Below, one piece after another: positions 11,921 through 51,182 of a DNA stretch of 64,000 bases. The notes beneath the pieces were generated by a model. That model did no database searches. It was not told the DNA's origin and saw nothing but the letters and a program-made list of their open reading frames with translations. Where the stretch lies: NCBI GenBank assembly GCA_964016885.1, contig OZ024758.1:23684001-23748000 (forward strand). Reading direction: 5' to 3'. The stretch's first letter is position 1. The number at the start of each line of letters is the position of its first letter. A program made the translations under genes and the position numbers. This stretch comes from Eledone cirrhosa (taxonomy: Eukaryota).

Positions 11921-12490
11921 TACGAGTGTCGGCTGAAAAGTTTAGGATAGGCCGACAACGAAGGAGTGATGTTAGAGCTATGAAATCTTGCATACATTAA
12001 TTTCAACTCTTCTTATTATTAACTGCATTGTTTCTTTCCAGGGACTATGTTGAAAAATAAGCCTCATTTGGTCATTCCATGAGAGTATCTTGGTCATAGG
12101 CCGACTACGAAGGAGTGATGCTAGGGCTGTGAAATCTTGCATACATTAATTTCAACTCTTCTTATTAGTCCCTGGAAAGAAACAATGCAGTTAATAATAA
12201 GAAGAGTTGAAATTAATGTATGCAAGATTTCACAGCCCTAGCATCACTCCTTCGTAGTCGGCCTATGACCAAGATACTCTCATGGAATGACCAAATGAGG
12301 TTTATTCTTCAACATAGTCCCTGGAAAGAAACAATGCAGTTAATATGTTGAAAAATAAACCTCATTTGGTCATTCCATGAGAATATCTCGGTCATAGGCC
12401 GACTCCGAAGGAGTGATGCTAGGGCTGTGAAATCTTGCATACATTAATTTCAACTCTTCTTATTAATAACTGCATTGTTTCTTTCCAGAG
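11921..12490. mobile_element. Mariner-like MITE with 149-bp internal units in direct and inverted orientation (related pieces 8445-8505, 20265-20296, 22866-23145)
   Basis: TACGAG(T/G)GTCGGCTGAAAAGTT terminus typical of mariner TIRs. Inverted block at about 12167-12345. Confidence 0.65.
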
Positions 12491-12797: not shown

Positions 12798-14044
12798 AAT
12801 AATAATAATAATAATAATAATAATGAAATTGTTTACAGTGCTCAGGTGCACTACAACTCGTCAAAGGTGCATGTATAGTACATAGAATAATGTACAAATA
12901 TCAGGAAAGTGAACAGTGAATGAGTCATGTTATACATGTGTGTGTATGGAGGGGGAATATCAGGTGTAGTGTTGGTGAATTTCAGGAGGCATGGAGGTTT
13001 TAAAGGATGCAGTGCCTTGGCAGCTAACAACTGATGCAGGGAGTTTGTTCCATGGAGGTTTTAAAGGATGCAGTGTCTTGGCAGCTAACAACTGATGCAG
13101 GGAGTTTGTTCCATGGAGGTTTTAAAGGATGCAGTGTCTCGACAGCTAACAACTGATGCAGGGAGTTTGTTCCATGGAGGTTTTAAAGGATGCAGTGTCT
13201 CGACAGCTAACAACTGATGCAGGGAGTCTGTTCCATGGAGGTTTTAAAGGATGCAGTGTCTCGACAGCTAACAACTGATGCAGGGAGTTTGTTCCATGGA
13301 GGTTTTAAAGGATGCAGTGTCTCGACAGCTAACAACTGATGCAGGGAGTTTGTTCCATGGAGGTTTTAAAGGATGCAGTGTCTTGTCAGCTTACAACTGA
13401 TGCAGGTAGTCTGTTCCATGGGGGTTTTAAAGGATGCAGTGTCTCGACAGCTAACAACTGATGCAGGTAGTTTGTTCCATGAAGGTTTTAAAGGATGCAG
13501 TGTCTTGTCAGCTAACAACTGATGCAGGTAGTTTGTTCCATGGAGGTTTTAAAGGATGCAGTGTCTCGACAGCTAACAACTGATGCAGGTAGTTTGTTCC
13601 ATGGAGGTTTTAAAGGATGCAGTGTCTCGACAGCTAACAACTGATGCAGGGAGTCTGTTCCATGGAGGTTTTAAAGGATGCAGTGTCTCGACAGCTAACA
13701 ACTGATGCAGGGAGTTTGTTCCATGGAGGTTTTAAAGGATGCAGTGTCTCGACAGCTAACAACTGATGCAGGTAGTTTGTTCCATGGAGGTTTTAAAGGA
13801 TGCAGTGTCTCGACAGCTAACAACTGATGCAGGGAGTCTATTCTATGGAGGTTTTAAAGGATGCAGTGTCTTGGCAGCTAACAACTGATGCAGGTAGTTT
13901 GTTCCATGGAGGTTTTAAAGGATGCAGTGTCTCGACAGCTAACAACTGATGCAGGTAGTATGTTCCATGGAGGTTTTAAAGGATGCAGTGTCTTGGCAGC
14001 TAACAACTGATGCAGGTAGTTTGTTCCATGCTTCAGCAACTCTG
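12798..14044 (-). mobile_element. CR1-type LINE 3' end (second 3' UTR copy at 34145-34278 +)
   Basis: - strand reads RVAEAWNKLPASVVSCQDTASFKTSM..., the CR1/L2 C-terminal WNxLP..VV..FK motif, followed by a UTR and (TTA)n tail. Confidence 0.75.
12990..14030. repeat. 61-bp minisatellite, about 17 copies, derived from the CR1 ORF end
   Basis: CATGGAGGTTTTAAAGGATGCAGTGTCTCGACAGCTAACAACTGATGCAGGGAGTTTGTTC repeated. Confidence 0.95.
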
Positions 14045-15522: not shown

Positions 15523-17794
15523 TGATCCAGCTCTGTGTTAGCTGATCTAACCCTGTGTTATCTGATCCAGCTCTGTGGTAGCTGATCCAACCCTGTGTTA
15601 TCTGATCCAGCCCTGTAGTATCTGATCCAGCCCTGTGTTATCTGATCCAACCCTGTGTTATCTGATCCAACCTTGTGTTATCTGATCCAACCCTGTATTA
15701 TCTGATCCAGCCCTGTAGTATCTGATCCAGCCCTGTGTTATCTGATCCAACCCTGTGTTATCTGATCCAACCCTGTGTTATCTGATCCAACCCTGTGTTA
15801 TCTGATCCAACCCTGTGTTATCTGATCCAACCCTGTGTTATCTGATCCAGCCCTGTGTTATCTGATCCAGCCCTGTGGTATCTGATCCAGCCCTGTGTTA
15901 TCTGATCCAGCCCTGTGTTATCTGATCCAACCCTGTGGTATCTGATCCAGCCCTGTGTTATCTGATCCAACCCTGTGTTATCTGATCCAGCCCTGTGTTA
16001 TCTGATCCAGCCCTGTGTTATCTGATCCAGCCCTGTGTTATCTGATCCAGCCCTGTGTTATCTGATCCAGCCCTGTGTTATCTGATCCAACCCTGTGTTA
16101 TCTGATCCAACCCTGTGTTATCTGATCCAACCCTGTGTTATCTGATCCAGCCCTGTGTTATCTGATCCAGCCCTGTGTTATCTGATCCAACCCTGTGTTA
16201 TCTGATCCAGCCCTGTGTTATCTGATCCAACCCTGTGTTATCTGATCCAGCCCTGTGTTATCTGATCCAACCCTGTGTTATCTGATCCAGCCCTGTGGTA
16301 TCTGATCCAGCCCTGTGTTATCTGATCCAGCCCTGTGTTATCTGATCCAGCCCTGTGGTATCTGATCCAGCCCTGTGTTATCTGATCCAACCCTGTGTTA
16401 TCTGATCCAGCCCTGTGTTATCTGATCCAACCCTGTGTTATCTGATCCAACCCTGTGTTATATGATCCAACCCTGTGTTATATGATCCAACCCTGTGTTA
16501 TCTGATCCAACCCTGTGTTATATGATCCAACCCTATGTTATCTGATTCAGCCCTGTGTTATCTGATTCAGCCCTGTGTTATCTGATTCAGCCCTGTGTTA
16601 TCTGATCCAACCTTGTGTTATCTGATCCAACCCTGTATTATCTGATCCAGCCCTGTAGTATCTGATCCAGCCCTGTGTTATCTGATCCAACCCTGTGTTA
16701 TCTGATCCAACCCTGTGTTATCTGATCCAACCCTGTGTTATCTGATCCAACCCTGTGTTATCTGATCCAACCCTGTGTTATCTGATCCAGCCCTGTGTTA
16801 TCTGATCCAGCCCTGTGGTATCTGATCCAGCCCTGTGTTATCTGATCCAGCCCTGTGTTATCTGATCCAACCCTGTGGTATCTGATCCAGCCCTGTGTTA
16901 TCTGATCCAACCCTGTGTTATCTGATCCAGCCCTGTGTTATCTGATCCAGCCCTGTGTTATCTGATCCAGCCCTGTGTTATCTGATCCAGCCCTGTGTTA
17001 TCTGATCCAGCCCTGTGTTATCTGATCCAACCCTGTGTTATCTGATCCAACCCTGTGTTATCTGATCCAACCCTGTGTTATCTGATCCAGCCCTGTGTTA
17101 TCTGATCCAGCCCTGTGTTATCTGATCCAACCCTGTGTTATCTGATCCAGCCCTGTGTTATCTGATCCAACCCTGTGTTATCTGATCCAGCCCTGTGTTA
17201 TCTGATCCAACCCTGTGTTATCTGATCCAGCCCTGTGGTATCTGATCCAGCCCTGTGTTATCTGATCCAGCCCTGTGTTATCTGATCCAGCCCTGTGGTA
17301 TCTGATCCAGCCCTGTGTTATCTGATCCAACCCTGTGTTATCTGATCCAGCTCTGTGTTATCTGATCCAGCTCTGTGTTATCTGATCCAACCCTGTGTTA
17401 TCTGATCCAACCCTGTGTTATATGATCCAACCCTGTGTTATATGATCCAACCCTGTGTTATCTGATCCAACCCTGTGTTATATGATCCAACCCTATGTTA
17501 TCTGATTCAGCCCTGTGTTATCTGATTCAGCCCTGTGTTATCTGATTCAGCCCTGTGTTATCTGATCCAACCCTGTGTTATCTGATTCAGCCCTGTGTTA
17601 TCTGATTCAGCTCTCTGTTATCTGATTCAGCTCTCTGTTATCTGATCCAACCCTGTGTTATCTGATTCAGCTCTCTGTTATCTGATCCAACCCTGTGTTA
17701 TCTGATCCAACCCTATGTTATCTGATCCATCCCTGTGTTATCTGATCCAACCCTGTGTTATCTGATCCAACCCTGTGTTATCTGATCCAGCCCT
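15523..17794. repeat. 20-bp minisatellite TCTGATCCARCCCTGTGTTA, about 113 copies
   Basis: Direct reading. Confidence 0.97.
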
Positions 17795-18173
17795 ATATAT
17801 ATACACATTTTAGTGCAGCATCAACGAAGCTTTAGGTTGCAGCCAAGCTAACCAATGCAGTTTCGGTGTGCATCTAAGCACTCAATGGAGAATTTTACCC
17901 CAGAGTTATAACATTACGTCTAGACAGCTTTGCAAATCAAATACAGCGACCGATAGGCTGGCCGCTTAGACCATAGCGACGAAAAAAAACTGAACTCAGG
18001 AAAAATATTTGACTGACCTGGACCGTTGCGTAGACATTACATGCAACACATAATGTGTACCATACAATACACATCACATGCAACACATAATGTGTACCAT
18101 ACAATACACATCACATGCAACATACAACATTTCCGCTAGGTTTCTGTAAATCCGAAATCAACAATATGTATAT

Positions 18174-18352
18174 ACATGGACACACTAGAAGAGGAAGACC
18201 AAGGTTAACGTATGTTGATGCCCTAAGGACAGACACTGGTCTGTTGGAGACGCAGGACATGGCAGTGATAATGAGGGACAGAGACCGCTGGAGAGAACTC
18301 GTCCATGGATCTCGGGAATTTTACCCGCCTTAGATAGATAGATAGATAGATA
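18174..18352 (+). mobile_element. RTE-type LINE 3' fragment with (TAGA)n tail
   Basis: HGHTRRGRPRLTYVDALRTDTGL..MRDRDRWR; near identical to 26798-26955. Confidence 0.8.
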
Positions 18353-18767: not shown

Positions 18768-19075
18768 ACGGCATGGTTATACGGAACAGTTATATATATA
18801 GAGAGATATATATACACATATCCATCCATATATATATATAGATGGATATGTAAATATCTCGATATCAGGAATATATTAGCACCAGAGCAGAAAGGGTAGA
18901 GAGGATGAAATAAAGCCAGATAAAATCAATGCTACAGAAATAATATAGATATCTCATCGTGGTGTAAATCCAGTATAAGATGCCTGTGGCATAACTTTTC
19001 CTTTCTCAATGATAGATTAATTATAAATGGTGAGGATAGAGGAGACTGTAAACAGATCAACAAAGTAAACTGACA

Positions 19076-19938
19076 CTCCGTCGGTTACGACGATGAGTGT
19101 TCCAGTTGATCTGATCAATAGAACAGCCTGCTTATATACATCTCTCTCTCTCTCTCTCTCTCTCTGGCATTCCGTCGGTTACGACGATGAGTGTTCCAGT
19201 TGATCTGATCAACGGAACAGCCTGCTTATATACATCTCTCTCTCTCTCTCTCTGGCATTCCGTCGGTTACGACGATGAGTGTTCCAGTTGATCTGATCAA
19301 TAGAACAGCCTGCTTATATACATCTCTCTCTCTCTCTCTCTGGCATTCCGTCGGTTACGACGATGAGTGTTCCAGTTGATCTGATCAACGGAACAGCCTG
19401 CTTATATACATCTCTCTCTCTCTCTCTCTCTCTGGCATTCCGTCGGTTACGACGATGAGTGTTCCAGTTGATCTGATCAATAGAACAGCCTGCTTATATA
19501 CATCTCTCTCTCTCTCTCTCTCTCTGGCATTCCGTCGGTTACGACGATGAGTGTTCCAGTTGATCTGATCAATAGAACAGCCTGCTTATATACATCTTTC
19601 TCTCTCTCTCTCTCTCTGGCATTCCGTCGGTTACGACGATGAGTGTTCCAGTTGATCTGATCAACGGAACAGCCTGCTTATATACATCTCTCTCTCTCTC
19701 TCTGGCATTCCGTCGGTTACGACGAGGAGTGCTCCAGTTGATCTGATCAACGGAACAGCCTGCTTATATACATCTCTCTCTCTCTCTCTCTGGCATTCCG
19801 TCGGTTACGACGATGAGTGTTCCAGTTGATCTGATCAATAGAACAGCCTGCTTATATACATCTTTCTCTCTCTTTCTCTGGCATTCCGTCGGTTACGACG
19901 ATGAGTGTTCCAGTTGATCTGATCAATAGAACAGCCTG

Positions 19939-19945
<7 letters not shown>
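19076..19945. repeat. Tandem of about 90 bp (10 copies) of the SINE family 2 3' end plus variable (TC)n
   Basis: The unit is the reverse complement of 48740-48804. Confidence 0.9.
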
Positions 19946-19978
<33 letters not shown>

Positions 19979-19999
19979 AAAAAGTATAACCCCGAGGGG

Positions 20000-24604: not shown

Positions 24605-25548
24605 AGGAGGTGAGAGGTAGACATGGTCGTGTGTTTCGGAGGAGGTGAGAGGTAGACATGGTCGTGTGTTTCGGAGGAGGTGAGAGGTAGACATGGTCGT
24701 GTGTTTCGGAGGAGGTGAGAGGTAGACATGGACGTGTGTTTCGGAGTAGGTGAGAGGTAGACATGGACGTGTGTTTCGGAGGAGATGAGAGGTAGACATG
24801 GACGTGTGTTTCGGAGGAGGTGAGAGGTAGACATGGTCGTGTGTTTTGGAGGAGGTGAGAGGTAGACATGGTCGTGTGTTTAGGAGGTGAGAGGTAGACA
24901 TGGTCGTGTGTTTTGGAGGAGGTGAGAGGTAGACATGGTCGTGTGTTTCGGAGGAGGTGAGAGGTAGACATGGACGTGTGTTTCGGAGGAGGTGAGAGGT
25001 AGACATGGACGTGTGTTTCGGAGGAGATGAGAGGTAGACATGGTCGTGTGTTTCGGAGGAGATGAGAGGTAGACATGGTCGTGTGTTTAGGAGGTGGTGA
25101 GAGGTAGACATGGTCGTGTGTTTCGGAGGAGGTGAGAGGTAGACATGGTCGTGTGTTTCGGAGGAGATGAGAGGTAGACATGGTCGTGTGTTTCGGAGGA
25201 GATGAGAGGTAGACATGGACGTGTGTTTCGGAGGAGGTGAGAGGTAGACATGGCCGTGTGTTTCTGAAGTGAGAGCTAGACATGGACGTGTGTTTCGGAG
25301 GAGGTGAGAGGTAGACATGGCCGTGTGTTTCTGAAGTGAGAGCTAGACATGGACGTGTGTTTCTGAAGTGAAAGCTAGACATGGACGTGTGTTTCGGAGG
25401 AGGTGAGAGGTAGACATGGCCGTGTGTTTCTGAAGTGAGAGCTAGACATGGACGTGTGTTTCTGAAGTGAAAGCTAGACATGGACGTGTGTTTCTGAAGT
25501 GAGAGCTAGACATGGACGTGTGTTTCTGAAGTGAGAGCTGGACATGGT
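24605..25548. repeat. 35-bp minisatellite grading into a 32-bp variant
   Basis: GAGGAGGTGAGAGGTAGACATGG(T/A)CGTGTGTTTCG repeated. Confidence 0.95.
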
Positions 25549-26148
25549 GTTCTTTAGTTCGAACTAAAGAACTTTAGTTCGAACTAAAGAACACCAGACT
25601 ACGATCTCTAACTGGATTGTCGTGGATTATGTGAAAGGCATATAATCAAAATATACACTCCCTTGACCATGAAAATGCCGAAGTACATGAATTACTTGAC
25701 ATCCCTGCGCTGTGCATCTCCAATACTTATAACACTTTTAATGCTTGCACTATCTTTAATGCTTATAATATTTCTCCACACACAGACTATATCAATCATA
25801 TAAAGATTTTGCCACCAGATCTACCAACCTAACACTCTTATCTACCTACCTAAGTGCCTCTACCACACATATCTCTCTGCCACACTATATAAACAAGACG
25901 CACATGCGTGCCACACATATAACATTTGCACTATATAACCACTTATCTTCATGTTGTACTTTAACCTATATCTTTGATTTTTGATTGTACCTATTAATAT
26001 AAATGTAATCTCGAAGTGTGTACTGCCACTCTAAATTCTGTAATGAATGTTGACCCACAATGTTTGAATATGTATCAATGTTTGAATATGTATTGGTATG
26101 TCTCTCGGCTGAAAAGGAGGTCATATAACTGTCCATGCATTAATAAAT

Positions 26149-26195: not shown

Positions 26196-26270
26196 CAATA
26201 ATGTTTTGAACAGTTCTTTGATTCTTATATTTCATATATATATATATATATATATGTATGTAAGTATGTC

Positions 26271-26323
<53 letters not shown>

Positions 26324-26353
26324 GCACTCACATACACATATATGTGTATGTAA

Positions 26354-26420
<67 letters not shown>

Positions 26421-26423
<3 letters not shown>

Positions 26424-26609
26424 CGAAGGAAATGTGGTAAGGAACCAGGTGGACCATAACGCACCAAAGTACTCAATACTTGAGGTAGTAGAGTGGGTAA
26501 TAGGAACCAGTAAGACCCCGACAGCTGAGCTCAAGCCGTTTCGACGGCTAATTCTCAGAATTAGCCGTCGAAACGGCTTGAGCTCAGCTGTCGGGGTCTT
26601 ACTGGTTCC

Positions 26610-26614
<5 letters not shown>
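26421..26614. mobile_element. Family C element with terminal fold-back (copies 26986-27178, 35648-35815, 46000-46117)
   Basis: Shared TAACGAAGGAAATGTGGTAAGGAACCAG end. The palindrome is centred on GACGGCTA..TAGCCGTC followed by GAAACGGCTTGAGCTC. Confidence 0.8.
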
Positions 26615-26650
<36 letters not shown>

Positions 26651-26703
26651 TGTATGTATATGTATGCGTGTATATGTATATACATATATAAATGCATATA
26701 TGT

Positions 26704-26952
26704 ATGTCAAAAGTGACACAGAGGAGACTGAGGTTAGCTGGACATGCTCACCGACATCCAGAGTTGACATTGCACTCAGTGCTCCTGTGGGAGCCCCTAC
26801 ATGGACACACTAGAAGAGGAAAACCAAGGTTAACGTATGTTGATGCCCTAAGGACAGACACTGGTCTGTTGGAGACGCAGGACATGGCAGCGATAATGAG
26901 GGACAGACACCGCTGGAGAGAACTCGTCCATGGATCTCGGGAATTTTACCCG

Positions 26953-26955
<3 letters not shown>
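26704..26955 (+). mobile_element. RTE-type LINE ORF C-terminal fragment
   Basis: RRLRLAGHAHRH..LLWEPLHGHTRRGKPRLTYVD..MRDRHRWR matches the RTE-clade C-terminus. Confidence 0.8.
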
Positions 26956-26989
<34 letters not shown>

Positions 26990-27177
26990 AAAAAGTATGA
27001 CCCCGACGGCAGAGCTCAAGCCGTTTCGACGGCTATTTCTGGACTGAAATAGCCGTCGAAACGGCTTGAGCTCGGCCGTCGGGGTCATACTTTTTCCTAT
27101 TACCCACTCTACTACCCTAAGTATTGAGTACTCTGGTGCTTATGGTCCATCTGGTTCCTTACCACAACTCCTTCGTT

Positions 27178-27589
27178 ATTAATAAATGGAAACTATATTT
27201 ATAAAACCATATTTATTTCATTATACATATTTCAGGGATACCAAATTAAATTATGGTATGCCTTCATCAGACAAAATACAATATATAATAGTTTTACAAA
27301 TAAGCTTTAACGTACCCAGATGACTTCCAAAAACAATGGTTGCATTTTAATAGGGTACGTCAAAGCTTATTTGTAAAACTGTTATATATTGTATTTTGTC
27401 TGATGAAGGCATACCATAATTTAATTTGGTATCCCTGAAATATGTATAATGAAATAAATATGGTTTTATAAATATAGTTTCCATTTATTAATATCGTATA
27501 TCTACTCCAAATACTTGTCGAGTGCTTTATATCAGTTATAAAAATATTTACTTGTTGTATCCCAACAATTTTAAATAGAACTTTTGCAT
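27178..27589 (+). mobile_element. Family B Penelope-like terminal remnant with inverted duplication and HHR-like core (27400-27440)
   Basis: Arms 27178-27317 and 27353-27492. CTGATGA-AGGCATACCA..TGGTATCCCT-GAAA. Confidence 0.75.
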
Positions 27590-27626
27590 ATATATATATA
27601 TATATGTGTATATGTATGTATGTATG

Positions 27627-27658
<32 letters not shown>

Positions 27659-28010
27659 TGTATGTATATATATATATATGTATGTATATATATATATATG
27701 TATATATATATACACACACACACACACGGCTGTGTGTTTATGTATGCACCTGTTCATACAAGCGCCCTCTAGGTGCAACAGCTTGTAACAATGATTTGAT
27801 GCAGTGCTGTTTAGGCAAGATTTGGTAGATGTGTGTATATTGTTATTATTATATATGGAAGTCTACAAAAAAACCTTCGTGTGTATATGTATGTGTGTAT
27901 GTGTGTATATATATGTGTGTGTATGTCAACGTTTTTGTTTTCATATTAACGTAGAAATATACAATGTAATGGTATGATATATAGTATAATAATATAATAA
28001 TAATAATTAT

Positions 28011-28079
<69 letters not shown>

Positions 28080-28102
28080 GTGTATGTAAGTATGTCTGTG
28101 TG

Positions 28103-28147
<45 letters not shown>

Positions 28148-28401
28148 GCACTCACATACACATATATGTGTATGTAAATGTGTATATATATATATGCGTG
28201 TATGTATATGTATGCGTGTATATTTTGTATATATATATTTATACATACATATATACATATATAAATATATATATATATATATATTTATACATACATATAT
28301 ATAAATATATATATATATAAATATATATATAAATATATATATTTATAAATATATATATAAATATATATATATAAATATATATATATAAATATATATATAT
28401 A

Positions 28402-28438
<37 letters not shown>

Positions 28439-28447
<9 letters not shown>

Positions 28448-29000
28448 TAAAAAAATAATGAATAAAACAATGAAACAGTTCCTTATATTAAACAAAAAAA
28501 GTTCATTATTTAACGATCGTTTCTAGGATATATATGTGTTAGAATTGGCATGCATATTCAACAGATCTATGTACAAAATTATACAAAATTATACAAACTA
28601 TCAAGATTAAATATACATACCAACACATATATATGCCGTCTTCAGAAATAATTATTATTTCTGAAGACGGCATATATATGTGTTGGTATGTATATTTAAT
28701 CTTGATAGTTTGTATAATTTTGTATAATTTTGTACATAGATCTGTTGAATATGCATGCCAATTCTAACACATATATATCCTAGAAACGATCGTTAAATAA
28801 TGAACTTTTTTTGTTTAATATAAGGAACTGTTTCATTGTTTTATTCATTATTTTTTTAATATTTTATCTTGACTCTGTATTCCGTTTATCTTTCACCAAA
28901 AGTGATATTTCATTGCATCTCTTCTTTCCATGATATCCGGATTACATTGAGTTCTTCATACGGATTGGACACTACCGTAAACTCTTGGTAGATTTATCTA
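28439..29000. mobile_element. Element with a near-perfect 430-bp palindrome (centre 28653) containing two opposed HHRs
   Basis: Arms 28439-28652 and 28654-28867. Confidence 0.85.
28654..28801 (+). ncRNA. Type I hammerhead ribozyme with about 115-nt stem II domain
   Basis: ATTATTT-CTGAAGA-[GGCATATATATGTGTTGG..CTAACACATATATATCC]-GAAA-CGATCG-TT-AAATAAT. Confidence 0.75.
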
Positions 29001-29059
29001 CATATATATATATATATATATAAATATATATATATATAAATATATAAATATATATAAAT

Positions 29060-34762: not shown

Positions 34763-34853
34763 TAATAATAAATGTGAAGACTAAAATCCAAAGAGGGCTC
34801 GATAAGGATAAATATATATCAAATATATAAGAACCGTAGAGCAAATATATATT

Positions 34854-34954
34854 AAAATAACAGATTAAAGTTTAAGCAAAGAATCGCTGCTTTCACCCTT
34901 AACTGTTAAGGGTGAAAGCAGAGATTCTTTGCTTAAACTTTAATCTGTTATTTT
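34854..34954. repeat. Near-perfect palindrome of about 100 bp
   Basis: ..TTTCACCCTTAAC-T-GTTAAGGGTGAAA.. with arms of about 50 bp. Confidence 0.9.
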
Positions 34955-35010
<56 letters not shown>

Positions 35011-35181: not shown

Positions 35182-35230
<49 letters not shown>

Positions 35231-35428
35231 AGATCAAAAGATGGTTAAAGGAGTTCCATGTATTTTATTATGCGCATTTCAAAAACAAACATCATCATGC
35301 AATAATATTTGTGTTTTCATCAGATAAAACAGGAGAACATGATATGAAGGCTAAAAAACACTTGTGGATAGTGCAGTTTTAAATCAACATATCACAAGTG
35401 TTTTTTAGCCTTCATATCATGTTCTCCT

Positions 35429-35497
35429 GTTTTATCTGATGAAAACACAAATATTATTGCATGATGATGTTTGTTTTTGAAATGCGCATAATAAAAT
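35429..35497 (+). ncRNA. Type I hammerhead ribozyme in fold-back 35223-35536 (mirror copy on - strand at about 35262-35330)
   Basis: GTTTTAT-CTGATGA-AAACACAAATATTATT(GCAT)GATGATGTTTGTTTTT-GAAA-TGCGCA-TA-ATAAAAT. Confidence 0.85.
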
Positions 35498-36027
35498 ACA
35501 TGGAACTCCTTTAACCATCTTTTGATCTTATATTATGCATACTCCAGTCCTACAAACTGTAGAGTGCTTCTTATCCGATATCTGCATTGCTTTATTGTAC
35601 TACAATAAAACTCACCTCCTACATATATATATATATATATATATATATAACGAACGAAGTGTGGTAAGATACCAGGTGGACCATAACGCACCAGAGTACT
35701 CAATACTTAGGGTAGTAGAGTCGGTAATAGGAAAATATTCAAGAGCTCAAGCCGTTTCGACGGCTATCTCTAGAAATAGCCGTCGAAACGGCTTGAGCTC
35801 TGCCATCGGGGTCTTGAACAATCTTCTATAATTCTACATTCTGTTTACTCTCTTCTCAGTACTGCCATTCCTATATCTCTTCTCTCTCTCTCTTCTCCCC
35901 CCCCTCTCTCTCCCTTTATCTCTCTCTCCCCCCTCTCCCCTTATCCTAATCTTAGTACTATCATGATCGATATTTTTACATTCAACTCTAACTGTTTATT
36001 TCTTATTTCATATCACTTCAGCTCCAT

Positions 36028-37065: not shown

Positions 37066-39380
37066 GGGCGGTGGATTGGCAGTATCGGTAGAGGGTCGGA
37101 CGCCATGCCTTCCAGCATAGAGTTACGCCCCTTTATGGTCTGAGTTCAAATCCCGCCGAGGTTAACTTTTACCTTATCGTTCATCTTACGGGGGGGGGGG
37201 TGTTTCGATAAAACAAAGTACCAGTAATGCACTGGGAGTAATTGCTGGCCTTGTGCCAAAAGTAGAAACGATTATGTACGCATGATATAAGAGAATATAA
37301 CAAAAAGAAACCCGATATACTTCTTATATCCTTATTATATCTTCATCATATAACAAAATATAGCGAAAGGGAAACACGATATCTCTGCAAAAAGTAGTTA
37401 CCGAGATAAAACAAAGTACCAGTAATGCACTGGGAGTAATTGCTGGCCTTGTGCCAAAAGTAGAAACGATTATGTACGCATGATATAAGAGAATATAACA
37501 AAAAGAAACCCGATATACTTCTTATATCCTTATTATATCTTCATCATATAACAAAATATAGCGAAAGGGAAACACGATATCTCTGCAAAAAGTAGTTACC
37601 GAGATAAAACAAAGTACCAGTAATGCACTGGGAGTAATTGCTGGCCTTGTGCCAAAAGTAGAAACGATTATGTACGCATGATATAAGAGAATATAACAAA
37701 AAGAAACCCGATATACTTCTTATATCCTTATTATATCTTCATCATATAACAAAATATAGCGAAAGGGAAACACGATATCTCTGCAAAAAGTAGTTACCGA
37801 GATAAAACAAAGTACCAGTAATGCACTGGGAGTAATTGCTGGCCTTGTGCCAAAAGTAGAAACGATTATGTACGCATGATATAAGAGAATATAACAAAAA
37901 GAAACCCGATATACTTCTTATATCCTTATTATATCTTCATCATATAACAAAATATAGCGAAAGGGAAACACGATATCTCTGCAAAAAGTAGTTACCGAGA
38001 TAAAACAAAGTACCAGTAATGCACTGGAGGTAATTGCTGGCCTTGTGCCAAAAGTAGAAACAATTATTTATGCATGATATAAGAGAATATAACAAAAAGA
38101 AACCCGATATACTTCTTATATCCTTATTATATCTTCATCATATAACAAAATATAGCGAAAGGGAAACACGATATCTCTGCAAAAAGTAGTTACCGAGATA
38201 AAACAAAGTACCAGTAATGCACTGGGGTAATTGCTGGCCTTGTGCCAAAAGTAGAAACGATTATGTATGCATGATATAAGAGAATATAACAAAAAGAAAC
38301 CCGATATACTTCTTATATCCTTATTATATCTTCATCATATAACAAAATATAGCGAAAGGGAAACACGATATCTCTGCAAAAAGTAGTTACCGAGATAAAA
38401 CAAAGTACCAGTAATGCACTGGGGTAATTGCTGGCCTTGTGCCAAAAGTAGAAACGATTATGTATGCATGATATAAGAGAATATAACAAAAAGAAACACG
38501 ATATACTTCTTATATCCTTATTATATCTTCATCATATAACAAAATATAGCGAAAGGGAAACACGATATCTCTGCAAAAAGTAGTTACCGAGATAAAACAA
38601 AGTACCAGTAATGCACTGGGAGTAATTGCTGGCCTTGTGCCAAAAGTAGAAACGATTATGTACGCATGATATAAGAGAATATAACAAAAAGAAACCCGAT
38701 ATACTTCTTATATCCTTATTATATCTTCATCATATAACAAAATATAGCGAAAGGGAAACACGATATCTCTGCAAAAAGTAGTTACCGAGATAAAACAAAG
38801 TACCAGTAATGCACTGGAGGTAATTGCTGGCCTTGTGCCAAAAGTAGAAACAATTATTTATGCATGATATAAGAGAATATAACAAAAAGAAACCCGATAT
38901 ACTTCTTATATCCTTATTATATCTTCATCATATAACAAAATATAGCGAAAGGGAAACACGATATCTCTGCAAAAAGTAGTTACCGAGATAAAACAAAGTA
39001 CCAGTAATGCACTGGAGGTAATTGCTGGCCTTGTGCCAAAAGTAGAAACAATTATTTATGCATGATATAAGAGAATATAACAAAAAGAAACCCGATATAC
39101 TTCTTATATCCTTATTATATCTTCATCATATAACAAAATATAGCGAAAGGGAAACACGATATCTCTGCAAAAAGTAGTTACCGAGATAAAACAAAGTACC
39201 AGTAATGCACTGGAGGTAATTGCTGGCCTTGTGCCAAAAGTAGAAACGATTATGTATGCATGATATAAGAGAATATAACAAAAAGAAACCCGACATACTT
39301 CTTATATCCTTATTATATCTTCATCATATAACAAAATATAGCGAAAGGGAAACACGATATCTCTGCAAGAAATAGTTACA
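37066..39380 (+). repeat. SINE family 1 followed by an 11-copy, 197-198-bp tandem of SINE tail plus flanking DNA
   Basis: GATAAAACAAAGTACCAG at 37207, 37405, 37603, 37801 ... 39185. Confidence 0.95.
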
Positions 39381-40057
39381 GAGGAACTACATCGTAAAAT
39401 AACATTTAAAAGGATAAAAAGAAGAAACTTAATGGCAAACGCAACTATACTATATAGAATAAGTAATGAAAATGGTAAATTGGACAAATATAATAGCTTA
39501 ACTCAACATTACAGATGAAAATAAATTTGAACAGTTAGACAATTTAAGTTCCGGAAGCGATCAATATAAAAAAAAAATGGAGAGACGGAAATCATGTCTC
39601 TTGGCTATCTCCCATTAAATAATATTCTGATAGCTTACTGTCAATTGTTTAAATGCACGAATGGCAGCCAAATAGGCGTTAAATCGTTCATATTTTCTAT
39701 AGTGTAAGTGTACTGTATATCTTTCTCTCTCTCTCTTCCTCCCCTCTCTCTCCCCCTCTCTCTTCCCCCACATCTCTCTCTCTCTTCCCCGCCCCCTCTC
39801 TCCCCGCTCTCTCCTCCACATTTAGCTCTCTCTCTCGCATATCACTCTCTCTCTCGTATCTCTCTCTCTCTCTCGCATATCTCTCTCTCGGCTCTCTCTC
39901 TCTCATATCTCTCTCTCGCATATCACTCTCTCTCTCTCTCGCATATCACTCTCTCTCTCTCTCTCCTCTCTCTCTCGCATCACTCTCTCTCTCAGTCGTA
40001 TTACTTCTGATAATTGATATACTGTATTAATATATAATTCTGTTTACTACTAAAGAT

Positions 40058-40102
<45 letters not shown>

Positions 40103-41615
40103 ATATATTAATAAATGGAAACTATATTTATAAAACCATATTTATTTTATATATATTTCAAGAGAAACCAAAGCAAATTATGGTGCGCTTTCATCAGATA
40201 AAATACAGATTTGTTTTATAAATAAATATTGACATACCCACAGACTTCAAATCTCGTTTCAATAACCATAAATGTTCCTTTACGAATATTCGTAAAAAAT
40301 CTTCAACTTGTCTATCCAACTTATTTTGGAACTTAAAAGCTAAGAATATTAACTATTCTTTATTTTGGGAAATTATCTCCAAAGCTCCTTCATACATGGG
40401 TCTATCCAAAATTGCTCCCTTTGCGTTGAAGAAATATTCTTTATACTAAAAAGTAAGAACTCTATTAATTTGCGAAATAATTTATTTGGTTCTTGTAAAT
40501 ATCGTTTAAATTCAACTTTTAAATATATATATAAAATGTAATGTATGGTTAATCTCCTTTACATAGTTTTCTATATCCAACCACCTACAACATCATCCTT
40601 CAGATTATATCTATATATGATTCATATATATTTAATTTAATTTACTTTCTATTATCTCTATCTCATAAATATATTATTACACTTATCAATAGATTATAAC
40701 CTTTTTTATATGACTACTTGAAATTCTTTTAAGGAAAATTTTCCTTGAAAAACTTTCGGAAGGTTTTAGAAAATTCTTTGAAAGTTCCTTTGAAAGATGA
40801 AAAAACCATTATTTTCATATCTTACAATATTTTTATATCTTCAAACATTTTAAATATATGTATTCAAATATTTATATATATGTGGAATAACATATGATTT
40901 TTATATATAGGTTTTTTATATATATGTGGAATAACCTATGGTTTATGTTTTAACTATATTGTTAAGATAACATTTTTAACTTTATAACATTTAATCCTTG
41001 GAATCATTTGAGATCATAAAAAATCACTTCTAACTTCCTTTATACTTCCTTACTGTTTTTATAATATAATTAAGTAGTTATTCCTTTGTAAACTCTCGTA
41101 AATTTTCATAAATTTAGAATTATTTGGATGTTTAAATTTTGACTTACAATTATTAATAAATATAATTTTGCCAAACTTACTTTAATAAAATAAACTATAC
41201 TAGATTTTCTATAATGTAAAATACTATATATTTATTTAAATAATTTATAATCTTTAACATAGACATCTAAACCAATATATTATTACTAATACATCTTAAT
41301 ATATTAAACCAATAATTTATTACTAATACATCTTAATATAATATAAATACTTTTATTTTAATTTTTAATATTAATATTAAATTATTAAGGCAAATTTTAA
41401 TCTTTAATTTTGATTTCTAATTTTTAATTTTAATACAATTTTTCAACCTATCATTATAAATATTATAATCACAATGTAATGAACCCTACATTCTAAATAT
41501 TATTCTTCCACGTTAATCTTATTTCTTCATTCATTCTGACTTTCTTCAATATCACTATGTATAATCGTTCTTTCTTTCCTGTGTATATATGTGTGTGTGT
41601 ATATATATATGTGTG

Positions 41616-42032: not shown

Positions 42033-42993
42033 TCACGCACACGCACACACACATTCACACAAACACGCACACACATTCACACTCACTCACTCACTCACTC
42101 ACTCACTCACTCACTCACTCACTGTAAAGGCAATGTTAAAGTTCAATATCCTTTATATCTGATTTTTCTTATTTCTTTGTTAGTGATTTTAATGTTTAAT
42201 TGGGAACAATACAGTCGCTGCGTTAATTAGCGTTTCAAGACCTTCTCGGCTTCATCTTCTTAATGAACTATTGATGAAAGCATCGCTATAGAGACAGTAA
42301 CAGATTCCATTCTGCCTAATTTGATCATATTTGTATTATCTACACCTACCGATCAATAAAGTCTCTCAGCAATCAGGAAAGACTTTAGTTTGTGTCTATA
42401 GGTATGGATTTCTCGAAAAATAAAATATATTTTGTATATATTTTGTTTATATACATATATATATTTTTATATATAGAAAACGTGATCTGTATAGAACGTT
42501 TTTTAACGTCCAGACCTTTTTTGACAATATATATGTGTATATATTTTGTTTATACATACATATATATGTATAAACGGTTTGATCTCTTCCGTCGGGGTTA
42601 AACATTTTCCTATATATATATATATATATATGTAAAAGTTCTATTTAAATTGTTGGGATACAACAAGCAAATATTTTTATAACTGAACAAATATTTGGAG
42701 TATTTGTTAATATCTTATTTTTACTCCAAATATTTGTTGATGGTTTTATAAATATAGTTTCCATTTGTTAATATCTTATTTTTACTCCAAATATTTGTTG
42801 ATGGTTTTATAAATATAGTTTCCATTTGTTAATATCGTATTTTTACTCCAAATATTTGTTGAGTTTATTTATAAAACTGATCTATATTATATTTTATCTG
42901 ATGAAAGCACACCATAATTTAACTTGGTGTCCTTGAAATATGTATAATGAAATAAATATGGTTTTATAAATATAGTTTCCATTTGTTAATATC

Positions 42994-42996
<3 letters not shown>
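40103..42996 (+). mobile_element. Probable 5'-truncated Penelope-like copy: inverted family B end, endonuclease remnant, AT-rich UTR, direct family B end (HHR-like core 42898-42938)
   Basis: 40103-40238 is the reverse complement of the family B terminus, which recurs in direct orientation at 42865-42996. Continuity across the gap is inferred. Confidence 0.5.
40243..40541 (+). pseudogene. Penelope-like element GIY-YIG endonuclease C-terminal remnant, one frameshift
   Basis: Manual translation DFKSRFNNHKCSF..STCLSNLFWNLK..YSLFWEIISKAPSY, frameshift near 40410, then NCSLCVEEIFFILK..INLRNNLFGSCKYR..stop. Fits the PLE pattern FKxRxxNHxxSF..LS..W.LK..W.I..CxLCxxE..N.R. Confidence 0.75.
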
Positions 42997-43044
<48 letters not shown>

Positions 43045-43789: not shown

Positions 43790-45612
43790 TTGAACGATGG
43801 GCTTACCTGAGAGGTGACGACTGCGCAGGTCAATTTTAAGACCCAGTCTGCTTCTCTATTCCATAGATTAGCCACGATTCTGAGCCAATAATAAACCACG
43901 GGCTTACCTGACAGGTGACGACTGCGCAGGTCAATTTAAGACCCAGTCTGCTTCTCTATTCCATAGATTAGCCACGATTCTGAGCCAATAATAAACGACG
44001 GGCTTACCTGACAGGTGACGACTGCGCAGGTCAATTTTAAGACCCAGTCTGCTTCTCTATTCCATAGATTAGCCACGATTCTGAGCCAGTAATAAACGAC
44101 GGGCTTACCTGACAGGTGACGACTGCGCAGGTCAATTTTAAGACCCAGTCTGCTTCTCTATTCCATAGATTAGCCACGATTCTGAGCCAGTAATAAACGA
44201 CGGGCTTACCTGACAGGTGACGACTGCGCAGGTCAATTTAAGACCCAGTCTGCTTCTCTATTCCATAGATTAGCCACGATTCTGAGCCAATAATAAACGA
44301 CGGGTTTACCTGAGAGTTGACGACTGCGCAGGTCAATTTTAAGACCCAGTCTGCTTCTCTATTCCATAGATTAGCCACGATTCTGAGCCAGTAATAAACG
44401 ACGGGCTTACCTGACAGGTGACGACTGCGCAGGTCAATTTTAAGACCCAGTCTGCTTCTCTATTCCATAGATTAGCCACGATTCTGAGCCAATAATAAAC
44501 GACGGGTTTACCTGAGAGTTGACGACTGCGCAGGTCAATTTTAAGACCCAGTCTGCTTCTCTATTCCATAGATTAGCCACGATTCTGAGCCAGTAATAAA
44601 CGACGGGCTTACCTGACAGGTGACGACTGCGCAGGTCAATTTTAAGACCCAGTCTGCTTCTCTATTCCATAGATTAGCCACGATTCTGAGCCAATAATAA
44701 ACCACGGGCTTACCTGAGAGGTGACGACTGCGCAGGTCAATTTTAAGACCCAGTCTGCTTCTCTATTCCATAGATTAGCCACGATTCTGAGCCAATAATA
44801 AACCACGGGCTTACCTGACAGGTGACGACTGCCCAGGTCAATTTTAAGACCCAGTCTGCTTCTCTATTCCATAGATTAGCCACGATTCTGAGCCAATAAT
44901 AAACCACGGGCTTACCTGACAGGTGACGACTGCCCAGGTCAATTTTAAGACCCAGTCTGCTTCTCTATTCCATAGATTAGCCACGATTCTGAGCCAATAA
45001 TAAACCACGGGCTTACCTGACAGGTGACGACTGCCCAGGTCAATTTTAAGACCCAGTCTGCTTCTCTATTCCATAGATTAGCCACGATTCTGAGCCAATA
45101 ATAAACCACGGGCTTACCTGACAGGTGACGACTGCCCAGGTCAATTTTAAGACCCAGTCTGCTTCTCTATTCCATAGATTAGCCACGATTCTGAGCCAAT
45201 AAACGACGGGCTTACCTGACAGGTGACGACTGCCCAGGTCAATTTTAAGACCCAGTCTGCTTCTCTATTCCATAGATTAGCCACGATTCTGAGCCAATAA
45301 TAAACGACGGGTTTACCTGAGAGGTGACGACTGCCCAGGTCAATTTTAAGACCCAGTCTGCTTCTCTATTCCATAGATTAGCCACGATTCTGAGCCAATA
45401 ATAAACCACGGGCTTACCTGACAGGTGACGACTGCGCAGGTCAATTTTAAGACCCAGTCTGCTTCTCTATTCCATAGATTAGCCACGATTCTGAGCCATT
45501 ATAGCTGAAAAACCCAATAATAAACCACGGGCTTACCTTGATAGGCGACGACTGCCCAGTCCAGTTTTAAGAACCAGCCCGCTTTTCTATTCCACAGATT
45601 TGCCACAAATAC
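43790..45612. repeat. 101-bp minisatellite, 17 copies plus one diverged terminal copy
   Basis: GGGCTTACCTGACAGGTGACGACTG..ATAAACCAC repeated. Confidence 0.95.
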
Positions 45613-45965: not shown

Positions 45966-46249
45966 AACATATACATACAGACACGTGTTTATATATATAT
46001 AACGAAGGAAATGTGGTAAGGAACCAGATGGACCATAACGCACCAGAATACTCAATACTTAGGGTAGTAGAGTGGGTAATACTTGAGCTCTGCCGTCGGG
46101 GTCATACTTTTTCCTATATATATATATATGTTAAAACAATGAAATAAAAAAATCAAGTCATTAGAGATATACTTCACTGCTTTACGATCGTTTCTAGATG
46201 ATTATAATACAATATATTTTTCATAACTGACTATATATAAATATATATA

Positions 46250-46686
46250 TGCAAAAGTTTTATTTAAATTGTTGGGATACAACAAGCAAATATTTTTATA
46301 ACTGATATAAAGCACTCGACAAATATTTGGAGTAGATATATGATATTAATAAATGGAAACTATATTTATAAAACCATATTTATTTCATTATATATATTTC
46401 AAGGATAGCAAGTTACATTATGGTATGCCTTCATCAGACAAAATACAATATATAACAGTTTTATAAATAGACATTGACGTACCCCTTTAAAAATTGACCG
46501 TTGATTTGGAGGCCTCCAAAAACAACGGTCAATTTTTAAAGGGGTACGTCAATGTCTATTTATAAAACTGTTATATATTGTATTTTGTCTGATGAAGGCA
46601 TACCATAATGTAACTTGGTATCCTTGAAATATATATAATGAAATAAATATGGTTTTATAAATATAGTTTCCATTTATTAATATCGT
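46250..46686. mobile_element. Family B remnant with a spacerless palindrome centred on GGAGGCCTCC; HHR-like core 46589-46629
   Basis: Arms about 46341-46512 and 46513-46685. Confidence 0.75.
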
Positions 46687-46726
46687 ATAAATATATATAT
46701 ATATATATATATAATATATATATTTT

Positions 46727-47237
46727 TAATTAGAAAGTGAACAACACAAAATATAACTACTCCATTACTAAAGGTTTCTGGATCCCAGACAATATTAACA
46801 TACGTCTGGATCGGTCATCAGACATGTTATGGATAAAAAATATGAAATGAAATTTAAAATCTGTTAAAAATTGGAAGTGAGGCTGGAAAAATAACGGGAA
46901 ATATACCCTTCTTTTCTTATATATATTTCCCATTATTTTACGTCCCTTTACGATCTGAGTTCAAATCCTGCCGAGGTTGACTTTGCCTTTCATCCTTACG
47001 GGGTCGATAAAATAAAGTACCAGTAATGCACTGGGTAATTGCTGGCCTTGTGCCTAAAGTAGAAACAATTATTTTTCAAGCCTCACTTCCAATTTTTAAC
47101 AGATTTTAAATCTCATTTCATATTTTTTATCCATAACATGTCTGATGACCGATCCAGACGTATGTTAATATTGTCTGGGGTCCAGAAACCTTTAGTAATG
47201 GAGTAGTTATATTTTATGTTGTTTACTTTCTAATTAA
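46727..47237. mobile_element. Fold-back element with a degenerate HHR-like core (47142-47188) and a SINE in the loop (46938-47072)
   Basis: Arms 46727-46894 and 47069-47237. CTGATGA-CCGATCCAGACG..TGTCTGGGGTCCA-GAAA. Confidence 0.65.
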
Positions 47238-47453
47238 ATAGCTCTGTTTTATACATAGAGCACTCTTTTTTCCTTTGCTTTTCCTTTTCCTTTAGAATTA
47301 CGTAACACACACACACACACACACATATATATATTACTTTATATTATAATTTTCATTTGAAGATATACCTTTATATGATATTCACACACATAAGAATTCC
47401 ACTTGCATGGTTATTTGTTAATCTTTGTTTGCACATATTCATATGCATACGTG

Positions 47454-48466: not shown

Positions 48467-48890
48467 GGCTCAAACAAAGATAATGGCATATGATATCTAT
48501 AACCTATAATATAACTTACTATCGTAAGGTCGTGAGTTCGATTCTTGGCGGCGCGCTGTGTCTTTAAACAAGACACTTTATTTCACGTTGCTCCAGTCCA
48601 CTCAGCTAGCAAAAATGATTTGTATCTGTAGTTCGAAAGGCTAGCCTTGTCATATTCTGCGTCACGCTGAATCTTCCTGAGAAATATATTGAAGGTACAC
48701 ATGTCTGTGGGATGCTCAGCCACTTGCACGTTAATTTCACAAGCAGGCTGTATCGTTGATCGGATCAATTGGAACACCCATCGTCGTAACCGACGGAACG
48801 CCAGTAATAATATAACTTATGGCATCAAATTGGCAGAGACGTTAGACTGTCCTCTGCCTGCCTGTCTGTCTGTCTGTTTGTCCGTCTGTC

Positions 48891-49880
48891 CTCACCGAGC
48901 TGCAGTCCTGGGTGAAGCAAAGACCGAGAAAACTGGGCGACTGGCACACCGAGTGTGCCCAGGCGCTCACGGCTCTCTGGCAGGCGGACCCGGCTATCGC
49001 TGGAGACTCCACCTCGTCATTCTATAGAGGGCTGGTGGTTAGCAGGTGCGACGACACCCTCGGAGAAACCCTAGGCATGGAGGAGGACGAACTGGCCAGC
49101 CTATTCGGTAGGACTTTCGGCCTGGCACCTATGGATAACTTCCAGAAGTCCTTTGCCTGGCAGTGCTACCGAGGGGCTCTGCCCGTTCGGGATATGCTCT
49201 ACAGACACGGGCGCCCGGGTAGGGACCCCTCGAAAAAGATCTGTCCCAGATGCGTGCGCGACGAGGAAACCGTCGCGCACGCATTGGTGCACTGCCCGGG
49301 CGTTGCCGATCTGTGGGGATATGTCGAACAACTGCTGTCACGGGTGGGACCAATTAGGTTGACCACCGAGTTCATTGTAACGATCAAGCCGCCTCCCCCC
49401 TTCAAAAATGAAGGAGAGGCGGTCTTCCTCTGTGTAATAGCCATGGTAAAAGAGTTTATATGGTGGACGCGTCTAAAAGGGCTGAGGTCGGACACCTTTC
49501 TCTCCGGCCAACAACTGGTCCTTTTCTTCCGATACCATTTCGGAAGAAGGATCAGGATGGAGAGAGAGGTGCTCCACTACAGCCAGTTTTATGAAAGGTG
49601 GGTGAAAGTTGCGAGAATGGCCCGTGTGAATGGGCCTTCTCTCTACCTCAGCCTGTAGGTGGAACAGAAAGAAGGGATCACCCTCTCTTTGTGCTCCCGT
49701 GGAGAAGGGTCGCACACTTTTTTTCGGGGGTGTGTGTGACCCCAAAACGATCCCTCCCTATTGAGGACCTTCTTGTTATTATTTTGTTTGTTATATTTTT
49801 CTTACTCGATTTTTATGTAAACTCCCCCCACCCATGTACATGTCCCTTTCTTTTGTGCCCTGGTGGCAAATAAACAGAAA
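48891..49880 (+). mobile_element. 5'-truncated Tx1/L1-like LINE: ORF2 C-terminal zf-RVT domain (open to 49658) plus 3' UTR
   Basis: SFAWQCYRGALPVRD..CPRCVRDEETVAHALVHCP..LW CCHC-type motif. AATAAA end; (TCTG)n flanks. Confidence 0.85.
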
Positions 49881-49942: not shown

Positions 49943-51182
49943 ACAGAAGGAAGGTGAGAGTGGAGAGAGAGAGAGGTGTAAATTCGCTGAAAGGTGGGTG
50001 AATGTGGCGAAAATGGCCCGAGTGATTGAACCTTGTCTGTATATAAACCAGTAGGTTGAGGAAGACGGGAAGACCTTCAAAACGCGCTCCTGGTGTCGAG
50101 GGTTGTTCTATCCGCGGGGTGTAAAACAACTCCGCAGTAACATTCCCCTCTGTTGGGGATTTCGATTGCTTTATTTTGTTAGCCATTATTATTGTTTTGG
50201 CAGTATCGGTAGAGGGTGGGACGCCATGCTTTGCAGCATAGTGTTACGGCCCTTTATGGTCTGAGTTCAAATCCCGCCGAGGTTAACTTTGCCTTTCATC
50301 CTTGCGGGGTCGATAAAATAAAGTACCAGTAATACACTGGAATAATTGCTGGCCTTGTGCCAAAAGTAGAAACAATTATTGCTAAATGGGCGGTGAATTG
50401 GCAGTATCGGTAGCGGGTCGGACGCCATGCTTTGACGCCTAGAGTTACGGCCCTTGCCATTCTGAGTTCAAATCCCGCCGAGATTTACTTTGCCTTTCAT
50501 CCTTACGGGGTCGATAAAATAAAGTACCAGCAATGTACTGGGTAATTGCTGGCCTTGTGCTAAAAATAGAAACAATTATTATTGTTAAAGGGCGGTAGAT
50601 TGGCAGTATCGGTAGATGGTCGGACGCCATGCTTTGCAGCAAAGAGTTACGGCCCTTTACGGCCTGAGTTCAAATCCCGCCGAGGTTAACTTTGCTTTTC
50701 ATCCTTACGATGTCGATAAAATAAAGTACCAGTAATGCACTGGGGTAATTACCGGCCTTGTGCCAAAAGTAGAAATAATTATTGCTAAAGATTTTATGGA
50801 AAACCCCCGCCGTCACGTCTTATAACGTCCCATTTGTGTACGCCCCCTGTGGCAAATAAAGAAAGATATCTATCTAGGGCCTTCTCTGTATATAAACCTG
50901 TGATATTGAAGAAGATAAACAGAGGGAAGACGGGAACACCTATAAAACGTGCCCCTGGTGTTGAGGGTCGTTGTATCCACGGGGTATAAAACAACCCCGC
51001 AGTAACGCCCTCACCCCTATTGGGGATTTCGATTGTTATTTTATTATATATAGTTTATTGTTATTTATTAATGTTAAAGTTATATGATTTTTATGTAAAA
51101 ACCCCACCGTCACGTCTTGTAATGTCCCATTTCTTGTACGCCCTTGTGGCAAATAAAGAAAGATATCTCTCTGTCTGTCTGT
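49943..51182 (+). mobile_element. Further Tx1-like 3' UTR fragments interleaved with three tandem SINE family 1 copies (50197-50780)
   Basis: GTGGCAAATAAAGAAAGATATCT ends at about 50870 and 51165; SINE consensus. Confidence 0.75.

Follow-up and report, generated by a model that had tools for sequence, protein, structure and literature searches.

A fold-back element, likely the 3' end of a Hydra-clade Penelope-like retrotransposon, in the TA tract of one of two copies of a microsatellite patch

In the 64,000 bases analysed here (the window), which consist of AT-rich, repeat-dense, eukaryote-like DNA, a patch of ~140 bases occurs in two copies 1.8 kb apart. One copy holds a short TA tract. In the other copy, this tract is much longer and is interrupted by an element with a fold-back, named C1. 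Does this pair represent the same target with and without an insertion, to which class does the element belong, and did its insertion lengthen the microsatellite? The answer that we regard as probable is that C1 likely represents the 3' end left of a truncated Hydra-clade Penelope-like element (PLE), that it likely inserted into the TA tract of one patch, and that the other patch is a probable empty site.

The two copies of the patch

A sequence-only reading of this DNA had reported a segment that is present twice, with a short (TA)n in the second copy, and this was borne out. Each of the four anchors on which the observation was based has exactly two occurrences in the window, all on the plus strand and in the same order (copy A/copy B: 26260/28086, 26321/28145, 26346/28170 and 26647/28195). 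Alignment of the two segments, which the same reading had named as a check, gave a concordant result. When dinucleotide runs were collapsed first (a global MAFFT alignment had misplaced the right flank), the empty patch aligned to the filled patch minus the element with indels only, at a score of 170 of a possible 230, whereas the best score among 311 other windows of 400 nt was 77. The features of this region are as follows.

26235..26692 (+): copy A, likely the filled site, interrupted by element C1; from the anchors and the alignment
26361..26422: (TA)31 next to the tail of C1, overlapping the TA-like terminus of the element with its last bases
26613..26646: (TA)17 at the short-arm end of C1
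26704..26958 (+): 3' fragment of a LINE ORF between the patches, 72% identical to an RVT_1 protein
28079..28265 (+): copy B, the probable empty site, within a 464-bp TA array; from the anchors and the alignment

Copy B has (TA)6 as its target tract (28183–28194), where copy A has (TA)31, the element and (TA)17. A second TA tract within the patch serves as a control and is near-constant between the copies (46 and 48 nt, including TG units). Tracts of 31 and 17 units fall inside the range of the 62 isolated TA tracts in the window (5–37 units). Homology of the patch extends to ~26692/28265, beyond a 26-nt insert in copy B. Past ~150 nt, the flanks are unrelated and have no match elsewhere, which indicates a short local duplication rather than a duplicated haplotype.

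The interval between the patches contains the LINE fragment, a second family C copy (C2), a family D fold-back (D1) and ~265 nt without a match elsewhere. Another copy of the LINE fragment lies at 18173–18329. We considered that the patch might be a long target duplication of the LINE, but found the fit poor: ~12 nt separate the patch from the LINE, 1.1 kb of other sequence separates the LINE tail from copy B, and each LINE copy has its own short duplication candidate of 9–10 nt, though these candidates are weak in low-complexity DNA. Since copy B is located inside a 464-bp TA array beside a young element of family E, our preferred guess is that the patch was duplicated by a templated local copy into this array.

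Anatomy of the element and its likely class

Family C comprises six copies or fragments in the window, including C1.

26421..26614 (−): element C1, likely a 5'-truncated PLE 3' end plus its inverted copy; the sense strand is the minus strand
26421..26497 (−): 77-nt unpaired tail of C1, present on one arm only; same terminal base in C1 to C4
26471..26494 (−): bulged tail hairpin of C1, ~4–5 nt beyond the short-arm end point
26498..26555 (−): long arm of C1; of a hammerhead-like motif it has the 3' half (GUC triplet at 26522, stem III and GAAA at 26542)
26557..26614 (+): short inverted arm of C1, with 0/56 mismatches to the long arm; ends at a TA microhomology
26985..27178 (+): C2, in opposite orientation to C1; (TA)16 at the short end; tail joins D1 directly, without TA
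35648..35815 (−): C3; (TA)13 at the tail end; short end degenerate, without TA
46000..46117 (−): C4; the palindrome has lost its centre, and both ends adjoin TA
42572..42613 (+): C5, a fragment that stops at the short-arm site in (TA)10
19974..19995 (−): C6, a fragment that stops at the short-arm site in (TA)18

C1 is 194 bases long and consists of a 77-nt tail and a perfect palindrome with arms of 58 bp and a loop of 1 nt (z = −18). The earlier reading had placed a fold-back of 26421–26614 inside the tract. Its location is correct, but the fold-back itself spans only 26498–26614, and 26421–26497 is the unpaired tail. The termini of C1 are not inverted repeats, with a match of 3 bases only. 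Family C has two fixed end points, both TA-like: the tails of C1 to C4 terminate at one base, and the short arms of C1, C2, C4, C5 and C6 end within 2 nt of one site.

Within copies, the arms differ little (C1 0/56, C2 1/55, D2 0/166, D46 2/166, D1 3/141, E 0/212 and F 0/141 mismatches). Between copies, the differences are larger, with 6/55 mismatches between C1 and C2 and 9–17 mismatches over 140–160 nt among the D copies. Because the arms are closer within than between copies, each palindrome must have been made from, or homogenised to, a single template. In family D the arms are likewise homogeneous per copy, and the apex is variable. Three C copies have an identical apex, which also fits the amplification of a ready-made hairpin.

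What kind of element produces such a structure? A type I hammerhead descriptor found 14 complete matches in the window, versus none in each of 40 shuffles. Complete cores occur in families D, F, G, L and N, most of them within sibling fold-backs, and variant cores were recognised by eye in families E, J and K. It is these sibling fold-backs with complete hammerheads that point to the class of the element. Their inverted arms end at stem II in families G and L, just 5' of the core in E and J, and 50–90 nt upstream in D and F. Family C keeps the 3' half of the hammerhead (GAAA, a stem III of 5–6 bp and the GUC triplet), and its apex sits at the expected position of stem II. The half-hammerhead of C1 and C2 was equalled by 0.4% of 5000 shuffles (p about 0.004); the test was not significant for C3 (p = 0.15), and the half-motif is absent in C5. 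The 5' core is missing from the long arm of C1, as from every other family C copy in the window, and none of these copies has an ORF. In folding, the C arm favours another local hairpin over the hammerhead half.

No hammerhead was present among the Rfam matches listed (150 of 422 and, separately, all 16), which were miRNA-like and all below the gathering score. A miRNA precursor was accordingly rejected, as no listed match exceeded this score. A non-LTR retrozyme was also rejected for family C, whose copies are dispersed and inverted and do not form head-to-tail units with a full hammerhead.

Three features in or beside the siblings bear on the class.

27174..27588 (+): D1, a family D fold-back; its type I hammerhead core is complete and lies at 27400; the tail has its hairpin at 27504 and ends next to (TA)n
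28439..29001 (+): family E fold-back; arms identical at 212/212 positions, hammerhead-like cores, tail
40240..40540 (+): C-terminal part of a Hydra-type GIY-YIG endonuclease ORF, frameshifted and recognised from the motifs of its relatives

The family E element lies between TA arrays of 464 and 360 bp. The endonuclease fragment directly adjoins an inverted family D arm (D4, 40105–40239); it is linked to family D by this adjacency only, and it is not followed by a direct D copy. In a full HMMER search, the fragment had 788 relatives at E ≤ 0.001. Among the best 150 of these 788, a CxxCxxE motif was found in 108, an N..E..CxH pattern in 64 and CxCX5C in 29; one relative, P0076, combines an RT motif and the endonuclease in a single chain. 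According to Craig et al. (2021, PMC8557442), the CxCX5C linker, CxxC and CxH are motifs of the Hydra-clade endonuclease. The fragment itself retains CxxC. In tblastn searches with the same best 150 of 788 relatives, 40240–40540 was the only matching locus in the window. The fragment had no match in Pfam, Atlas, the PDB sequences or a word-index search, and a GIY-YIG match was obtained for 1 of the 15 relatives scanned, below threshold.

The families share a further structure. A bulged hairpin occurs some 3–6 nt beyond the short-arm end point in families C, D, E, F, G and K, and is built from a conserved outer stem of 4 bp, a variable but paired inner stem of 3 bp, a loop and a 2-nt 3' bulge. 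C1 has this same arrangement of 4-bp outer stem, 3-bp inner stem and 2-nt bulge; in family E the hairpin has a long-loop form. There are four types of inner stem, and family K adds a G-C outer pair. A short-loop descriptor detected 14 cases, versus a shuffled mean of 0.52 (maximum 3 in 100), a contrast that is partly circular because the motif was defined on these sequences before counting. Pair counts were taken from the descriptor scripts, as the MAFFT alignment was out of register. Known families account for 11 of the 14 cases (four in C, four in D and one each in F, G and K), and the three others, at 17906, 18537 and 19075, are unassigned. The last of these lies in the first unit of an 88-bp tandem array (19070–19946). 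The minimum-energy fold shows the hairpin in the tails of D and F and a shifted register only in that of E; the hairpin is absent from the minimum-energy fold of C1, C2 and G.

Related hairpins can be recognised by eye in the six novel Hydra consensi of PMC8557442 File S7. The full motif is present in two of the six, Hydra-2_Amil from a coral and Hydra-2_Ajap from a sea cucumber, both with a G-C outer pair. Hydra-1_Crog has it with one mismatch and Hydra-1_Amil in part, and the Hydra-1_Obim and Hydra-1_Ajap consensi stop at a TA-like site ahead of any tail. Judged by eye, the inner stem of the coral hairpin is identical to that of family C; the tail hairpin of family K closely resembles that of Hydra-2_Ajap. 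In the literature searched, outside which fell most subscription papers and the Repbase reports, we found no description of the tail hairpin. The word 'hairpin' is absent from the main text of PMC8557442, and the supplements of PMC11167929 may show a related stem-loop. Covariation over six families in the window, together with recurrence in the coral and sea cucumber consensi, makes the bulged hairpin a candidate priming or recognition signal. As such, it offers a concrete, mutable candidate for the choice of the start site in PLEs, a step of their transposition that is still open.

Because family C has neither a 5' hammerhead core nor an ORF, its class rests on its architecture and the shared hairpin; the tail hairpin is its best link to the Hydra clade. 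An inverted 5'-truncated copy, a one-sided tail and insertion in (TA)n are all present in family C. Hydra elements, as described in PMC8557442, likewise have (TA)n targets, hammerheads near the 3' end and inverted 5'-truncated copies with a one-sided tail; such copies and tails, like palindromes at junctions, count as standard features of PLEs (PMC8557442, PMC3846280). File S2 shows several Hydra hammerheads with one additional base on either side of stem II, as here. There are also differences: tails are 77–135 nt long here, compared with 30–40 nt published for the Hydra clade (PMC8557442), and, unlike Hydra elements, family C has neither an ORF nor a 5' hammerhead core in the window. Four motifs of 10–15 nt from the window have no exact match in the supplement of PMC8557442, which, within the reach of that test, places the window families outside its consensi. 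Families D and F share a palindromic short stem III with the minimal type I hammerheads that Cervera and de la Pena (2014, PMC4209133) describe in PLEs, and in the truncated PLEs of that paper motif pairs lie 100–700 bp apart on opposite strands, as here. Compared with those hammerheads, family C retains the 3' half only, with a stem III of 5–6 bp. Judging from these similarities, C1 likely derives from the 3' end of a truncated retrotransposon of the Hydra clade, and the best reading of family C is that of a new family within a type of element already described, with fragments of a Hydra-clade PLE lying in the target published for that clade.

TA targets, proposed mechanism and rival histories

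Insertion into TA tracts, as proposed from the sequence alone, is well supported for the fold-back elements. Ends of family C adjoin (TA)n in 8 of 10 cases, versus 4.8% of random positions; the two exceptions are the tail of C2, which is joined to D1, and the degenerate short end of C3. Across fold-back families C to G, 22 of 26 ends adjoin (TA)n, compared with 3 of 60 ends of SINE-like and LINE controls. These 26 ends share ~20 TA tracts and hence are not independent, and the control is a rough one, as its 60 ends are the ends of BLAST hits of a partial query and include tandem units. Enrichment of TA flanks was thus seen at the scale of the 64-kb window. It is consistent with File S1 of PMC8557442, where (TA)n is the target of 26 of 27 Hydra families. 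A target-site duplication of family C is not readable within (TA)n. Several fold-back families are chained end to end via common TA tracts (35186–35815, 42572–43044 and 46000–46880), which suggests repeated insertion into one another's flanks.

How might C1 have arrived? By analogy with the biochemistry of PLEs, a full-length copy located elsewhere would provide the GIY-YIG endonuclease that nicks the (TA)n of patch A. The freed TA 3' end would find a TAT/TA site to pair with in the RNA of the element, at the end of the tail or ~77 nt upstream, just before the bulged hairpin. The reverse transcriptase would then stall at stem II of the hammerhead. The palindrome could arise by fold-back self-priming of one cDNA or by the joining of two cDNAs primed on opposite strands, two routes that are indistinguishable from this sequence. 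A staggered cut would duplicate some TA units; the 41 extra units may or may not stem from the insertion.

Parts of this scheme have counterparts in other PLEs. For PAc, a Poseidon PLE from Anolis, Frangieh et al. (2024, PMC11167929) showed in vitro that reverse transcription begins at two adjacent internal sites, which define the tail, and that the protein cuts both strands of AT-rich DNA and extends them. Two start sites that define the tail, AT-rich cleavage, cleavage and extension of both strands, and a stem-loop at the start site are likenesses to our case. However, PAc belongs to a different clade, and its start site reportedly lacks homology to the DNA that is cut, in contrast to the TA microhomologies at both end points here; neither (TA)n specificity nor a stem II fold-back is reported in the available part of PMC11167929. 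In Penelope elements of Adineta vaga (Arkhipova et al. 2013, PMC3846280), inverted pLTRs occur, palindromes at inverted junctions are described and attributed to self-priming, and an empty allelic site was used as proof of insertion. Target duplications in A. vaga are 8–10 bp long in unique sequence, in contrast to the (TA)n found here, where a duplication cannot be read.

The events might also have run in the reverse order. The patch would then have been copied after the insertion, and copy B would have lost the element by slippage from one flanking TA tract to the other, across the 58-bp palindrome, in which case (TA)6 says nothing about the original site. The absence of substitutions in the non-repeat anchors and the 0/56 mismatches between the C1 arms mean that both events are too young to be ordered; moreover, C4 and C3 show deletions in such palindromes, and copy B is located within a rearranged TA array. 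We nevertheless think this order unlikely, for it needs one event more than a simple insertion and must remove the tail plus hairpin without leaving a remnant, while the control tract of the same patch kept its length. A further explanation might be that the fold-backs and the duplicate are artefacts of the library or the assembly, either inversion chimeras or two haplotypes placed in tandem. Perfect palindromes and long TA arrays are indeed error-prone in sequencing. Yet five or six independent copies have their end points at identical bases, several arms carry mismatches, and homology of the patch ends after ~150 nt with flanks that have no match elsewhere, so that an artefact seems very improbable.

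TA-targeting MITEs derived from Tc1/mariner elements are short and have an inverted repeat and TA flanks, like family C, which is also non-coding. A class II MITE of the Tc1/mariner type or another TA-targeting type, with a TA target duplication, would therefore come to mind. This reading is largely refuted, and we give it next to no credence. Unlike MITEs, family C has no terminal inverted repeats (3 bases match only); one of its ends is a 77-nt unpaired tail, which makes the element asymmetric; and it carries a ribozyme remnant. Furthermore, its arms are homogenised per copy, and its tail hairpin is common to the hammerhead-bearing families. With insertion of a PLE fragment retained as the preferred history, the core event at this locus is ordinary for the element class, but in annotation, fragments of this kind are readily mistaken for MITEs or miRNA precursors.

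Microsatellite growth and other repeats in the window

The earlier reading had coupled TA-targeted insertion to possible growth of the microsatellite. The targeting held (8/10 and 22/26 ends versus 4.8% and 3/60), but the link with growth did not find comparable support. That insertion itself lengthens the TA tract would be an addition to the preferred explanation rather than a replacement, and we consider it possible, though doubtful. A telomerase-related reverse transcriptase might reiteratively copy the TA start site, or a duplication might be followed by faster slippage. The contrast between 6 and ~47 units in the target tract, with 46 and 48 nt in the control tract, is suggestive of such growth. 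So is the observation that 7 of the 11 TA arrays of at least 200 bp adjoin ends of fold-back elements, including arrays of 1.3–2.6 kb, and that the arrays beside E consist of reiterated (TA)n-AA units. The proportion of long arrays that adjoin elements did not differ significantly, however, from that of shorter arrays (7/11 versus 16/43, p = 0.11), in a test whose library lacked two further families and at least two of the known ends. A rank test of TA length beside element ends was significant but confounded by the giant arrays, and we do not rely on it. In addition, the tail of C2 joins D1 directly, with no TA between them, no catalogued element lies beside certain tracts of 30 and 37 units, and long tracts are simply larger targets. 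It also counts against growth that assemblies do not give dependable lengths for TA tracts that adjoin a hairpin.

Growth caused by insertion is thus a suggestive hypothesis. If it held, a telomerase-related reverse transcriptase would be linked to the accumulation of microsatellites. In a broader version, which we deem rather unlikely, a clade-wide hairpin would set priming at TA microhomologies in Hydra PLEs and the reverse transcriptase would add TA units, each insertion lengthening the next target. Hydra PLEs would then be a driving force behind this genome's very long TA arrays, with the pair of 6 and ~47 units as a snapshot.

Matches of the fold-back families cover 5,544 of the 64,000 bases. 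At 54019–58433, a 120-bp remnant of family E (55709–55829) lies between TA-based arrays of 1.7 and 2.6 kb. Family L (60431–61736) has three hammerhead-bearing units 540 bp apart and resembles a non-LTR retrozyme array; the first unit has an inverted arm that adjoins a 1.3-kb TA array. In family K (46725–47240), two inverted hammerhead-bearing arms surround a SINE-like unit. Further hammerhead-like cores occur outside the fold-backs (7586, 18759, 29541, 30297, 63173 and 3406/9706), several of which run into TA arrays, and fold-backs without a hammerhead core occur at 12017–12345, 34845–34963 and 25545–25596.

Other repeats are frequent as well. ARAGORN found no tRNA in the window. A SINE-like dispersed repeat gives ~28 merged matches (1–720, 1098–1476, 37207–39383 and 50197–50783) and also builds tandem arrays of 195–202 bp. 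Minisatellite arrays are present at 12990–14030, 15523–17794, 24605–25548 and 43793–45498, with periods of 61, 20, 35 and 101. Finally, a 270-aa open frame at 48846–49658 (+) has a zf-RVT domain (Pfam PF13966, E = 6.5e-7) and is likely the 3' part of an L1/Tx1-type non-LTR element.
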